Below the pieces are notes generated by a model. It saw only the letters and a list, made by a program, of their open reading frames with translations. It searched no databases and had not been told where the DNA came from. Below, one piece after another: positions 969-9,145 of a DNA stretch of 17,725 nucleotides; positions within the stretch are counted from its first letter, which is position 1, and each line of letters starts with the position of its first letter. The DNA is from Promethearchaeota archaeon (GTDB taxonomy: Archaea > Asgardarchaeota > Lokiarchaeia > Sigyniarchaeales > SOKP01). The position numbers were made by a program, and so were the translations under genes. The DNA is taken from assembly GCA_004524535.1 (NCBI GenBank), contig SDNY01000074.1, positions 1-17,725 on the forward strand, written 5' to 3'.

Positions 969-1226
969 ATGAGAATCTCTGTGGAAGATAGTCGGACAGG
1001 CAAGCTGATTAAGCTCGATGTAAAAGAACATCATCAGATTGAACGAATTGTAGACATTATCGTCAAACATATGGGGATTATAAGCACTGAACAACGCTCA
1101 TATACTTTAGTTTTGAACGATCAGGAATTGCCTACAACCATAACAATACAAGATGCTATTCACAAATATGGCTTAAAAGAAAATGACAAATTAGCCTTAT
1201 GGGCTAGAGTAGTTGGGGGCTTTTAA
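969..1226 (+). CDS. Ubiquitin-like (beta-grasp) modifier precursor ending in ...ARVVGG-F
   Basis: 85 aa with a ubiquitin-like pattern (MRISV..RTGK.IKLDV, YTLVLNDQEL, YGLKENDKLAL) and a di-Gly one residue before the stop. Lies next to E2, E1 and JAB genes. Confidence 0.88.
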   Translation: MRISVEDSRTGKLIKLDVKEHHQIERIVDIIVKHMGIISTEQRSYTLVLNDQELPTTITIQDAIHKYGLKENDKLALWARVVGGF

Positions 1227-1819
1227 TCGTCGATTATAAGAATATCTTCATCTGCTTCTTCTACTTCTTCTTTTTCAAAATCGTATTTTTCTTTAAGATC
1301 TGCCATCTTATTTTGTTTGAAAAATTCAGTAGCCTCTAAACAAATAGGATAATTTAATGGATCCTCGGGATTTGGATTTTCTACGAGTAGTTTTAGTGCT
1401 TTTATAGTAGTGTCCATATCAGATAAGAGGCTCCATTTCTTGAGCACGTTTAAACATATATATCCCGTTCCAGTTTCACCAGAACCTAATTCGACTGGAT
1501 GGATATTCGGGTGGAAGATAGGGGAATACCAAGCAAAATCTATGCCTCCTGGATAGGGGAAGTTTCGATTAAGTTTCAGCATAATTTTATGATTCTTTTG
1601 AGGGATTAAATCCAAGCTTTCCGCCCCCTCCTTTAAAATAAACCCTAATGATTTTATATTTACAATAAATTCAACTGAGTTTTCCTTGTAAATTATGCTA
1701 TTTTTCTCAAGAACATTTAAATGTTCTAAAGACTCTAGTTCATTTTCGATACGGTCTTTCCAAATTTCCAGATCTCTAAGGAAATCTTAGATTTTTTCTA
1801 GTGGTAATTCTGGACTCAT
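1223..1819 (-). CDS. Ubiquitin-conjugating enzyme E2, interrupted at 1766-1795 by a 30-nt insertion carrying an in-frame TAA (188 aa if removed)
   Basis: UBC motifs NFPY, IFHPNI, GYICL (catalytic Cys), W-S and NPNPEDPLN. The same frame is open upstream of the tracked TTG 1615 and encodes an E2 helix-1 pattern (WKDRIENELESL). ATG 1819 is in frame and TAA lies at 1789-1787. The family call is firm; the 5' structure is inferred. Confidence 0.85.
1766..1795 (-). other. Candidate 30-nt bulge-helix-bulge (BHB) intron in the E2 mRNA
   Basis: Minus strand reads CCA-CUAG-AA^A-AAA-UCUAAG-AUUUC-CUUAGA-GAU-CUGG-AA^A-UUUGG. It has a 4-bp helix CUAG/CUGG with an AAA 3' of each strand and a 6-bp internal stem. 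Excision is in frame and removes the stop. Confidence 0.5.
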
Positions 1820-4464: not shown

Positions 4465-5352
4465 TTATTTTTTGTTATATTTTGATGAACAAATCCAACA
4501 TTTAGGATTTTTTATTTTTTTTATTATATCAAATTTATTTGTGAGTCCATTATAATTTAGTTGTTTATTAATAAGTGGTTCTCCTATGTTTGGATGCCAT
4601 TTTCCATGTTCTTTGAAATAATCTATTCCTAAGACAAATTTTAATACCTGTTGTGTTTGAATTCCACCAATTATAGCGGTAGTAGTAATTATAGTGGCTA
4701 TTTTTCCCATTGTCTCCCCATTTTCGGACTTTATTTCTTGTCCAGTACAGGAAAATTTTTTCCACATCAAGTTTAAATCAGTTCCAGTTATTGCACATTG
4801 TAAACAAGCTGCATTTTTAACTCCTGAATATACAGCTTGTACAGAACCAAAAAATCCATCGATACCACTGTCAATAAAAGGAATACCATAATAATAGGTA
4901 TAATTATTTGCTTGAAGTCGGGCTTCGATATTATCAAGACATGAACAGACCACATCAGACTGTTTATAAAGATTTTTGTCAATATCATTTAAATCTTGAT
5001 TTACTGCAACAATTTCTACTTCTGGATTTAGATTTTCGCAGGCTTCTTTAACAACATCAACTTTATATTTATTATCAATTGAACATTCCATGTTAAATAA
5101 TACACAACGATTAAGGTTAGATTTCTCAATAATATCATAATCGATTAAAATAATTTTTTTAATACCAGTAAGTACTAGATTTTTAATTAATTCATTTCCA
5201 GTAGCTCCAGCACCCACAACCATAATCGTTGCATTCGATATTTTATTTTGATCCCATCCAGCTATTCGTTTTTGACGATCGTAAATATCCTCATCTATAG
5301 ATTCTACTCCCAATACTTTATAATCTTTATTAATATCTTTCTTTCTTTTCAT
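4465..5352 (-). CDS. Ubiquitin-activating E1-like enzyme (ThiF/MoeB/UBA family)
   Basis: YDRQ, VVGAGATG nucleotide-binding loop, D.D.IEKSNLNR, CLDNIEAR, zinc pairs CLQC and CWIC, and a likely catalytic Cys in FSCTG. Confidence 0.93.
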   Translation of the reverse strand: MKRKKDINKDYKVLGVESIDEDIYDRQKRIAGWDQNKISNATIMVVGAGATGNELIKNLVLTGIKKIILIDYDIIEKSNLNRCVLFNMECSIDNKYKVDVVKEACENLNPEVEIVAVNQDLNDIDKNLYKQSDVVCSCLDNIEARLQANNYTYYYGIPFIDSGIDGFFGSVQAVYSGVKNAACLQCAITGTDLNLMWKKFSCTGQEIKSENGETMGKIATIITTTAIIGGIQTQQVLKFVLGIDYFKEHGKWHPNIGEPLINKQLNYNGLTNKFDIIKKIKNPKCWICSSKYNKK

Positions 5353-7460: not shown

Positions 7461-8876
7461 ATGACACAGATTAAGATAGGTATCGTTGGAGCAGGTTCTG
7501 CAGGATTATTTGCAGCTAAAGAACTTGGAAAATTAAATTTAAATGGCATTGAAATTAAAATTTTCGATCAAGGACCTGAAGTAGATAAACGATATTGTCC
7601 ACTTAAAGAAGAAGAACTTGCATGCGCTCAGTGTTATCCTTGTAAAATTATGAGCGGTATTGGTGGTGCTGGAGCATTCTCTTCTGGTATTTTAAATTTA
7701 AATGAAAATATCGGAGGGCCTCTAGGTGAATTATGCGACAGGGTTAACTTAAATGCAAAAGAAGTAATTCAGAGTATAGATGATTTTTTCGTTCAAAATG
7801 GTGCTCCAAATAAAGTTTTTGACCCTTTTGAAAAGTCTAAAAAGAACAAATTAAAAGAATTAAAAATGAAATGCGTTTCAGTTGACATAAGATTTGTTCC
7901 AATTAAACAGAGATTATTGGGATCTGAAAATACCCCAAAAGTTATTAAATCGATTCGAAAGTACCTCGAATCTAATTTTAATATTCAATTTATTCCAAAT
8001 ACAAAAGTTATTAGATTTGATAAGAACAAGAATCTTTATTTTGAAGATGGCAAAAAGGAGAATTTTGATTATTTGCTTTTAGCCCCCGGCAGATGGGGTA
8101 TGGTATGGTTAGCTGAGGTTTGTAATAAAATAATAATTAAAACATTTTATGAGCCACTGGATATTGGTGTGAGGGTTGAAGTGCCCGCTATCATTATGGA
8201 AGATGTTTGTTATATTCAAAGAGATCCTAAGTTTCATATCATAACACCAACATATAAAGATTTTATAAGAACATTTTGCGTCAATCATAAAGGCTATGTG
8301 GTTAAAGAAACATATGAAAAAAAAATTGCTGGGGTCAACGGGCATCAATTTTCAACTGAAGGAAAATCAGGAAATACCAATTTCGCATTTCTTATTAGGC
8401 AAAGCTTAACGAGTCCTCTTGAAGATACTACGGAATATGGTCGTTCAATAAGCAAGCAAACTTCAATTTTAGGAGGGTATAAGCCCTTAGTCCAAACACT
8501 GGGTGATCTCCGAAGCGGTCATCGCTCACGCTCATCTCTTATTGATAAAAATCCTGTACAACCCACTTTAAAAGATGCAACACCTGGAGATATTGCGATG
8601 GCTTATCCCTATCGTTTTGTAACTGATATCCTAGAGGGACTAAAAATTCTGGATAAAGTAATTCCTGGAGTAAATAACAACAGTACATTGATTTATGCTC
8701 CTGAGTTTAAACGTAGTGCTAAAAGAATTGATATAAATAATTTTTTCGAATCAAATCAAATAAAAAACATATTTTTCGCCGGGGATGGCGCGGGTGTATC
8801 CAGAGGAATTATAGGTGCTGCTGTTACAGGCATAATTGCAGCAAAAGGGATTATTTTAAAGATAACTAATCATTAA
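7461..8876 (+). CDS. FAD-dependent oxidoreductase (COG2509-like) with an N-terminal Cys cluster
   Basis: IVGAGSAG Rossmann motif, CP...CAQCYPC, GIGGAGAFS.G, DIGVRVE, RTFC, VNGH, YAPE and GDGAGVSRGI. Confidence 0.88.
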   Translation: MTQIKIGIVGAGSAGLFAAKELGKLNLNGIEIKIFDQGPEVDKRYCPLKEEELACAQCYPCKIMSGIGGAGAFSSGILNLNENIGGPLGELCDRVNLNAKEVIQSIDDFFVQNGAPNKVFDPFEKSKKNKLKELKMKCVSVDIRFVPIKQRLLGSENTPKVIKSIRKYLESNFNIQFIPNTKVIRFDKNKNLYFEDGKKENFDYLLLAPGRWGMVWLAEVCNKIIIKTFYEPLDIGVRVEVPAIIMEDVCYIQRDPKFHIITPTYKDFIRTFCVNHKGYVVKETYEKKIAGVNGHQFSTEGKSGNTNFAFLIRQSLTSPLEDTTEYGRSISKQTSILGGYKPLVQTLGDLRSGHRSRSSLIDKNPVQPTLKDATPGDIAMAYPYRFVTDILEGLKILDKVIPGVNNNSTLIYAPEFKRSAKRIDINNFFESNQIKNIFFAGDGAGVSRGIIGAAVTGIIAAKGIILKITNH

Positions 8877-8968: not shown

Positions 8969-9145
8969 AAAAGAAAAGAAAAGAGAAGGGCCAACGAAAT
9001 CCAAACAATTTTTGCAAAAATTAGGGAGAAAATTAAACTCTAAACAGAGTTTAATAGAGGGCGAATTTTGGCGTTTTTTGAAGTAAATTTTTTAAACGTA
9101 TCCAATGTTGTGTTTAGATTTTGATTGATTAATTTCCCTTCTTTA
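8969..9145 (-). ncRNA. Candidate structured non-coding RNA or decayed MITE-like element
   Basis: Nested inverted repeats 8984-8990/9136-9142 and 8997-9007/9111-9121, inner palindromes 9007-9022 and 9032-9055, followed on the minus strand by CUUUUCUUUUCUUUU. Confidence 0.3.

Follow-up and report, generated by a model that had tools for sequence, protein, structure and literature searches.

A candidate 30-nucleotide bulge-helix-bulge intron in the E2 gene of a Lokiarchaeia archaeon, with a genome-wide class of similar inserts

Short introns that fold into the motif known as bulge-helix-bulge (BHB) and interrupt a protein-coding gene are known from cbf5 in the Crenarchaeota (Desulfurococcales and Sulfolobales), where they have been gained and lost in a patchy manner and are tied to a hetero-oligomeric splicing endonuclease, as described in PMC2738675, which states that, up to 2009, no other archaeal mRNA had been confirmed to be spliced. 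In a passage on mRNA introns, a 2025 paper on the archaeal splicing endonuclease, EndA, cites only the cbf5 work. The present analysis deals with a 30-nucleotide (nt) insert in a ubiquitin-conjugating enzyme (E2) gene of a Promethearchaeota archaeon (Lokiarchaeia), found on the minus strand of a stretch of 17,725 nt (contig SDNY01000074.1 of assembly GCA_004524535.1), which is referred to here, at its full length, as the window. With a probability of about 0.78, positions 1766-1795 represent a relaxed-BHB intron in the E2 pre-mRNA, which would be cut by EndA and sealed by the RNA ligase RtcB to give an E2 of 188 residues, the cleavage and the ligation being steps that we infer from the sequence. 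While the cbf5 intron concerns one gene in one phylum, with its splicing shown experimentally, the candidate E2 intron has an Asgard host, lies in an E2 gene, and is accompanied by others of its kind, with 24 or more inserts in the open reading frames (ORFs) of one and the same genome and with several sites that are common to different genera.

The introns of Asgard tRNA genes provide a second comparison, given that they have the same motif, in which two 3-nt bulges enclose a helix of 4 bp, the same size range and, presumably, the same enzymes. Their hosts, as discussed in passages of 10.64898/2026.10.13.758758 and PMC11291895, are tRNA genes, whereas here they are mRNAs. In HAC1/XBP1 splicing, which is performed by IRE1 together with tRNA ligase or RtcB, a protein endonuclease and an RNA ligase likewise take out a short mRNA intron with no spliceosome involved, and its removal is needed for the full reading frame, but there the endonuclease is IRE1, the RNA motif consists of twin stem-loops and the system is a stress-regulated switch, and no regulation is evident for the E2 intron. 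Finally, programmed translational bypassing, as in phage T4 gene 60 and the byp elements of Magnusiomyces/yeast mitochondria, relies on a take-off codon and a landing codon that match, and a stop stands immediately behind the take-off. The similarity here lies in the short coding inserts (27-55 nt) with stops and hairpins, and the E2 insert does have matching codons at its ends. On the other hand, matched codons are missing in most members of the class described below and in the insert of one E2 ortholog (L166), the class extends to rRNA, and exon bases take part in a covarying helix.

The genome of the window is labeled G000 and its closest relative G008. The original prediction, made from the window alone, read the gene correctly, as confirmed by the sequence and its translation: an ATG (1819-1817, minus strand) lies in frame with the E2 ORF and is followed, after ten codons (MSPELPLEKI), by a TAA at 1789-1787, the next in-frame ATG, GTG or TTG is the TTG at 1615, from which the ORF has 130 residues, and the excision of 1766-1795 gives a 188-residue product with the junction ...PLEIWKDR. 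After the TAA, the minus-strand frame is open for 187 codons up to a stop at 1225-1223, and this downstream part is assigned by Pfam to UQ_con (E2), with an E-value of 1e-09 and 38.6 bits versus the 27-bit cut-off. Exon 2 has an intact HPN motif and an intact cysteine in the context GYICLN. The features of the interrupted gene are as follows.

1796-1819, minus strand: E2 exon 1, the ATG and seven codons (MSPELPLE); the orthologs begin M(S)PELP.EIW
1801-1798 and 1797-1796, minus strand: 3' end of exon 1, with CUAG as the exon strand of the central helix and then the first two bases of bulge 1
1766-1795, minus strand: intervening sequence, a candidate BHB intron with predicted cuts after 1796 and after 1766
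1787-1789, minus strand: in-frame TAA inside the insert, which allows only a 10-residue peptide from the unspliced mRNA
1775-1791, minus strand: intron hairpin, a 6-bp stem with a 5-nt loop
1768-1771, minus strand: intron strand of the central helix (CUGG), followed by bulge 2 (1767-1765, cut after 1766)
1223-1765, minus strand: E2 exon 2, 180 codons and the stop, with the UBC core

BHB scores are written here as central/outer/inner pairs, and a BHB is taken as canonical when at least one flanking helix has two or more contiguous pairs at the bulge (hBHBh', HBh' or hBH, the rule of a 2026 preprint). The pairings that had been proposed for the E2 insert are all present in the minus-strand RNA. 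The central helix, which is also found in the minimum free energy (MFE) fold, joins CUAG (1801-1798) to CUGG (1771-1768) through 4 bp, including one G.U, and AAA forms a bulge 3' of each helix strand (1797-1795 and 1767-1765), while 1791-1786 and 1780-1775 form a perfect stem of 6 bp around a loop of 5 nt (1785-1781); the BHB score is 4/1/1. A motif of this type (four central pairs and at least one closing pair per side) arises by chance in 0.6% of random 30-nt windows from the long ORFs of G000, and in 3.5% when the cut is allowed to slide by ±4 nt. Given that this local evidence is weak, the strong support is comparative, from the orthologs, the same-site inserts and the genome-wide class.

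In the proposed mechanism, the intron would lie eight codons in from the start codon, and the exon bases CUAG would pair with CUGG, the four intron bases that directly precede the 3' bulge, to form a helix of 4 bp with a 3-nt AAA bulge at either side, on opposite strands, and with the middle of the intron folded as a hairpin. A heteromeric EndA, composed of a catalytic and a structural subunit, would cut both bulges behind their second base, and the exons would then be joined by RtcB, so that the joined mRNA would be translated into the 188-residue E2 with its PLEIW junction. As the unspliced mRNA would end after ten codons, the synthesis of E2 would depend on splicing. The intron would be one of a large population of BHB mini-introns of approximately 30 nt, located, in this Lokiarchaeia-type lineage, in protein genes, in the 23S rRNA and probably in tRNAs.

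As the original prediction had anticipated for related Asgard genomes, the PLEIW segment is contiguous in 105 of 108 comparable orthologs, in which the insert is absent. Among 40 genomes (G000 and 39 relatives), the E2 gene was found in 12, and all 11 of those outside G000 are uninterrupted (11/11) and read M(S)PELP.EIW. They include the G008 ortholog, which has 91% protein identity and no insert, and the DNA alignment leaves a clean 30-nt gap in the three relatives aligned (3/3). A metagenome scan recovered 67 loci, with the N-terminus on the contig in 58, of which 55 are uninterrupted (55/58), and a scan of species representatives recovered 44 loci, 43 of them examined; L226 is without an N-terminus, L227-L230 match only from residue 37 and were left out of the comparison, and the comparable orthologs are uninterrupted in 39 of 39 cases, with P.LP.(E)IW.

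Variable inserts at the same E2 site, the other pattern that had been foreseen for an intron, occur in L124/L125 and in L166, and in each case the 4-bp helix is preserved along with the 3-nt bulges. There is no difference between L124 and L125, whose E2 has a protein identity of 68% with that of the window; the same-site insert (L124:1492-1521) has 30 nt, includes the TAA and has 25 of its 30 bases (83%) in common with 1766-1795. Its central helix pairs CAAG with CUUG through four Watson-Crick pairs, and its inner helix has three pairs, a mismatch and five further pairs, which makes it canonical (4/1/3). The insert of L166, whose E2 is 57% identical, is an unrelated sequence of 29 nt that shifts the frame; four Watson-Crick pairs make up its central helix and 3 bp its inner helix (4/0/3, canonical), and its removal leaves MPSLPLEIWRDR, i.e., it restores ...PLEIWRDR. 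In one central pair (columns 26 and 57 of alignment A4), both bases differ between the window, which has U.G, and L124, which has A-U, and pairing in the proposed structure reaches 89% in these two sequences, versus 18-54% in slid controls. Alignment A2, which includes L166, was left out of the pair counting, given that the helix register of L166 is shifted by one base. The direct repeat CT(A/G)GAAA at both ends of the window insert had been raised as a caveat, as it would also fit a duplication or a footprint. This objection is answered by L124, in which the repeat has decayed to 5 matches in 7 while the complementarity is perfect, so that it is complementarity which is conserved, and not repetition. 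The scarcity of microhomology around the other members of the class, with 1 nt or less in 12 of 19, is a further answer to it. The closest E2 relatives of each carrier (92%, 76% and 79% identical) have no insert, which makes the distribution patchy.

The insert, together with its TAA, is also present in Logan contigs of three runs, which represent three samples and two studies (X1, possibly the source sample; X2, another sample of the same study; X3, from another study), in line with a check that the original prediction had called for, and no indels or joints are listed in any run. The X2 contig has six differences within 1443-2200, two of them inside the insert, with the TAA kept: on the minus strand, C stands in place of A1792, and its pairing with G1774 extends the stem to 7 bp, and U1784 in the loop is replaced by A. 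Given these substitutions of its own, X2 represents a separate strain and not the same data. In X3, there is a further, intron-less contig similar to the G008 allele, which covers window positions 1739-1768 and leaves the window at 1768, with a depth of 47 versus 10 for the intron-bearing contig.

For exon 2, the ratio of non-synonymous to synonymous substitution (dN/dS) amounts to 0.18 when compared with G008 and to 0.087 when compared with L124, which bears an insert too, with the synonymous sites saturated in the latter comparison (pS 0.73). Between the insert-bearing G000 and X2, exon 2 has six synonymous and two non-synonymous differences (binomial P = 0.0012 at 20% synonymous sites). No signs of a pseudogene were found, as exon 2 is intact in G000, X2 and L124, and selection is not relaxed. 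On the basis of these substitution patterns, the insert-carrying E2 genes are judged to be under purifying selection. The 83% identity of the introns, amid saturated synonymous sites in the exons, suggests either a strong constraint on the intron or its transfer between lineages.

The existence of similar inserts in other genes of G000, a further expectation of the original prediction, was confirmed by a motif-free comparison, in which G000 was aligned to G008 (~90% DNA identity), with 1.32 Mb aligned uniquely. G000 has 37 non-tandem inserts of 26-36 nt and G008 has five, indels of 6-25 nt are about equally frequent in both, and the most frequent insert length is exactly 30 nt, with 14 events in the full histogram. 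Long ORFs contain 21 of the 37 G000 inserts, and on the sense strand eight of these form a canonical BHB and 11 a canonical or near-canonical one, versus none on the antisense strand. By chance, a BHB is expected at a rate of 1.05% when the position must be exact and of 2.3% when ±1 nt is allowed, and the sense-strand excess has P ~4e-7 even at a rate of 3.6%. The members of the class have no mutual sequence similarity (best local score 11), and the flanking microhomology is 1 nt or less in 12 of 19.

A multi-copy mobile element (a miniature inverted-repeat transposable element or a transposon footprint) was considered as a source and rejected, since the best second match of the E2 30-mer in G000 has 14 nt (E 0.2, blastn-short) and flanking repeats are mostly absent in the class. 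G008 has an insert of its own, of 31 nt (G008:C22:94227-94257), which shifts the frame of an ORF that is intact in G000 and has a near-canonical BHB (3/2/5). Given this, there have been gains or losses on both branches, yet insertions in G000 account for a far larger share of the differences.

A census at the protein level started from 1,783 G008 ORFs of at least 120 residues, 1,324 of them with a match of at least 70% identity, and four sites were added by hand. The resulting ortholog-guided table holds 24 inserts of 29-39 nt in conserved ORFs, each with a stop and/or a frameshift, and with lengths of 30 nt (12 inserts), 31 nt (4), 29 nt (3), 32 nt (2), 34 nt (2) and 39 nt (1). Half of them (12/24) shift the frame. 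These disruptive inserts have a canonical BHB in 15 of 24 cases and a canonical or near-canonical one in 18 of 24, compared with a canonical BHB in three of 18 in-frame, stop-free indels (Fisher P = 0.0045).

The interrupted genes, named by Pfam on the intact G008 orthologs, include those of RNA polymerase A', ribosomal protein S10, adenylosuccinate synthetase, the CdhD and CdhC subunits of carbon monoxide dehydrogenase/acetyl-CoA synthase (CODH/ACS), two acetyl-CoA-synthetase-like proteins, a MoxR ATPase, AFOR, TldD, DeoC, a FAD-binding protein (with two inserts), an ABC ATPase, a metallo-beta-lactamase-fold protein and a second UQ_con protein. Three of them, rpoA' (two inserts), S10 and purA (two inserts), are single copy in G000, a metagenome-type assembly of 198 contigs which is 99% complete.

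G000:C17:309-338 and 449-481: inserts in the RNA polymerase A' gene, with a stop or a frameshift
G000:C135:24669-24698: insert in the ribosomal protein S10 gene, 30 nt with four in-frame stops
G000:C126:25463-25493 and 25580-25610: inserts in the adenylosuccinate synthetase gene (purA), with a stop or a frameshift

The excision of these inserts, which are of 30-31 nt, restores GHFGHIELA in rpoA', SWGDEGKGK and NAGHT in purA, and the core of S10. Matches to S10 in two other genomes (G003:C196:1289-1600 and G013:C196:607-927) have one in-frame stop each (TGA and TAA, respectively) and no extra length. In the second UQ_con (E2) gene, a frameshifting insert of 29 nt (G000:C123:17016-17044) has a canonical BHB (4/1/5), and the G008 ortholog is intact.

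The class also reaches the 23S rRNA, in which a G000-specific insert of 30 nt with a strong BHB of 4/1/9 (C174:55725-55754, in the large-subunit rRNA L233:3393-6909) is absent from G008 and serves as a positive control; this member excludes a purely translational way of ignoring the inserts. The same rRNA gene has a second G000-specific insert, of 133 nt (C174:56314-56445), which is also absent from G008.

Same-site recurrence extends to other genera. The purA gene has internal stops in G000, G009 and G013 (three of the 36 genomes with a match), and in each of them (G009 as L231, G013 as L232) a BHB insert of 30-31 nt sits at the same P-loop site, with the exon strand GGGG in every case, differing partner strands (CCCU, CUCU and CUUU) and unrelated hairpins. 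In rpoA', stops lie inside the main match in eight of the 39 genomes with a match, and a BHB insert is found at, or within 8 nt of, the site between GHFGH and IELA in five of the eight relatives' regions fetched, with sizes of 30 nt in G006 (L240), G021 (L241) and G010 (L242), 40 nt in G023 (L243) and 50 nt in G020 (L246). No BHB-consistent rpoA' insert was found in G033, G026 and G025 on scanning query positions up to 900, despite their internal stops. The rpoA' inserts of other genera have unrelated hairpins and a covarying central helix. In a gap-free alignment of the four 30-nt versions (G000, G006, G021 and G010), 96.2% of cells are paired, versus 74% in shuffled alignments, with none of 500 shuffles reaching the observed value, double-sided changes are seen in eight of 13 pairs, and the pairing in slid controls amounts to 36-50%. 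In the exon, the glycine codon varies at its third position, and this base covaries with its partner in the intron.

Enzymes that could process these inserts are encoded in the genome. G000 has two tRNA_int_endo (EndA) paralogs of 201 residues each, located in C100 and C84, one of which has Tyr, His and Lys at the positions that we take to be the EndA active site, and 3p1z_B as its best match in the PDB (7.6e-37), while the other is without the His. RtcB (C101) is intact, with 561 bits and no internal stops. PMC5829648 reports an (alpha-beta)2 EndA with an L1 loop and broad specificity for Asgard archaea, and the G000 pair would fit an enzyme of this type, the roles of the subunits and the broad specificity being predicted on the basis of that source and of the residues assumed to be catalytic.

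Aragorn recognizes only 12 tRNAs in G000, eight of them with introns, and most of the tRNA genes are presumably too interrupted for recognition. The low count would fit tRNA genes that are heavily interrupted in some Asgard groups, as described in 10.64898/2026.10.13.758758 and PMC11291895, which present Asgard tRNA introns as recent, repeated gains on terminal branches and identify no route of arrival. Further G000-specific BHB inserts lie in G+C-rich stretches without an ORF (C113:6524-6555, C188:21796-21826, C65:33272-33300 and C81:29123-29151), and these four have no Rfam match at the gathering score.

The original prediction had also suggested that splicing might gate ubiquitination in the manner of HAC1/XBP1, i.e., that condition-dependent removal of the insert by EndA and RtcB switches the output of E2 and, with it, ubiquitin-like conjugation. 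The synthesis of E2 must indeed depend on the removal of the insert, the sub-optimal BHB of the window could make splicing rate-limiting, and the second UQ_con gene (C123:17016-17044) also has a BHB insert, of 29 nt. No evidence was found in favor of such a gate: the same class occurs in housekeeping genes unrelated to ubiquitin (RNA polymerase A', S10, purA, CODH/ACS, acetyl-CoA synthetases and 23S rRNA), no sensor or condition-specific element was seen, and the absence of the insert from 105 of 108 comparable orthologs and from the carriers' closest relatives is a patchiness unexpected of a conserved regulatory device. A regulated gate is thus improbable, and, given the inserts in RNA polymerase A', S10, purA, the CODH/ACS subunits and 23S rRNA, the constitutive removal of neutral or selfish introns fits better than a switch; removal is most likely a constitutive housekeeping process rather than one specific to ubiquitin. 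It is slightly less probable again that the insert is a disabling mutation or a decayed intron which is not removed, leaving a pseudogene or, at best, an N-terminally truncated product of 130 residues from the TTG at 1615. This would agree with the in-frame TAA, the lack of a start codon before 1615, the weak flanking helices of the window allele and the insert-free G008 gene, but exon 2 is otherwise undamaged, with a dN/dS of 0.09-0.18 and six synonymous versus two non-synonymous differences between insert-bearing strains, the insert has been retained, TAA included, in three samples of two studies and in a lineage whose protein identity is only 68%, and inserts of the same kind interrupt the single-copy rpoA', S10 and purA, which cannot be dead in a 99%-complete genome.

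Translational recoding, whether by a ribosome that hops over the 30 nt from a take-off GAA to a landing GAA or by readthrough of the TAA, is very unlikely. Identical GAA codons do stand before the insert and at its end, both in the window and in L124, with a stop and a hairpin in the gap, but the stop lies two codons beyond the take-off and not directly after it, the 29-nt insert of L166 lacks a matching codon on which a landing would yield ...EIW, and the class as a whole offers little for a hop, with microhomology of 1 nt or less in 12 of 19 members and a shifted frame in 12 of 24 inserts. In addition, the class member in the 23S rRNA is out of the reach of translation, and the covariation speaks for a helix formed in RNA, with exon bases taking part. 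An assembly artefact, or a rare strain variant without biological meaning, is scarcely credible, even though the assembly is of the metagenome type, with 198 contigs, and the intron-less, G008-like allele is the deeper one in X3 (47 versus 10), as the insert is found in the independent Logan contigs of X1, X2 and X3, with substitutions of its own in X2, and a homologous insert is found in two further metagenome contigs (L124 and L125).

A number of points weigh against the reading of 1766-1795 as a spliced intron. The window BHB is among the weakest of the class, with a single A-U pair closing each bulge, a 2x2 mismatch between bulge 1 and the stem, and the best outer helix displaced by 7 nt on the 5' side. 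With one pair per bulge, it is not canonical by the rule on flanking helices, hence its description as a relaxed BHB, and it is one of the six of 24 disruptive inserts that are neither canonical nor near, the others being C17:449, C182:292, C52:18535, C180:254 and C135:24669, the last two of which have alternative placements that score 3/6/9 and 3/2/9, respectively. CUAG is self-complementary, and hence any direct repeat of it pairs automatically. The 81-nt fold is no stabler than its shuffled versions (MFE -14.1 kcal/mol, z = -0.58, with 49 of 200 shuffles equal or better), and, given this z, folding stability alone says nothing. The count of covarying pairs in E2, with two sequences only, has no power, as 243 of 500 shuffles reach the observed value. 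As for the class, the comparison covered 1.98 Mb of the ~3.2 Mb of G008, the table takes the best motif of 4-17 near-equivalent placements, which inflates its BHB calls (a chance of ~6% at ±4 nt), and for five census events (C118:27388, C119:15530, C120:21662, C156:13203 and C77:7885) no excision consistent with the orthologs was found. The sole RNA run with any of the stretch (X22) yields a 268-nt contig of a relative, which covers 1444-1711 with 22 differences and ends before the site. Given its place among the weaker BHBs of the class, the window allele may be spliced inefficiently, and it could be a decaying, poorly spliced intron.

Taken against these points, the proposal of a BHB intron that interrupts the E2 gene draws support from the orthologs, the same-site inserts, the DNA assemblies and the class, while the splicing step itself is deduced. 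For the family as a whole, it is quite probable that the splicing of mRNAs by EndA and RtcB is routine and obligatory in dozens of genes per genome, including those of the largest RNA polymerase subunit, S10, purA and two E2 enzymes, with introns gained, lost and possibly transferred. The kind of intron is known from cbf5, and what is new is the Asgard host, the E2 gene, the uniform size of approximately 30 nt, the number per genome, the presence in essential genes, and the recurrence at shared sites with covariation. A literature search within the limits of one library brought up no account of such introns in protein-coding genes of Asgard archaea, and the supplements of 10.64898/2026.10.13.758758 and PMC11291895 might mention introns outside tRNAs.

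Archaeal mRNA introns have so far been treated as a curiosity of cbf5, and, if the present reading is true, an Asgard lineage has many, essential genes included. This E2 would then count as functional, with its expression dependent on the machinery of tRNA splicing, and gene callers would yield truncated, split or pseudogenes for E2, rpoA', S10, purA and others, so that some of the functions and tRNAs "missing" from Asgard metagenome-assembled genomes might be artefacts of unrecognized introns. It would also mean that a close prokaryotic relative of the eukaryotes lives with intron-split protein genes and with neither a nucleus nor a spliceosome, and the relation between intron invasion and the origin of the nucleus would become testable in an organism in which transcription and translation are presumably coupled and mRNAs nevertheless need splicing. 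The covarying introns that share sites form a natural data set on the arrival and spread of BHB introns.

The surroundings of the E2 gene in the window include two further genes.

969-1226, plus strand: convergent ORF of 85 residues that ends in GGF, with no Pfam match
4465-5352, minus strand: E1-like gene of the ThiF family (Pfam ThiF, E 5.4e-50)

The 85-residue ORF is likely to encode a ubiquitin-like protein, judging by its size, its C-terminal GG and its neighbors. The window also holds a second G000-specific insert, of 34 nt (9066-9099, minus strand), with a canonical BHB of four central, one outer and five inner pairs. Its host stretch has no ORF of 50 residues or more and lies between ORFs that end at 8876 and 9369, so that this insert may sit in a non-coding RNA or in an unrecognized small gene.

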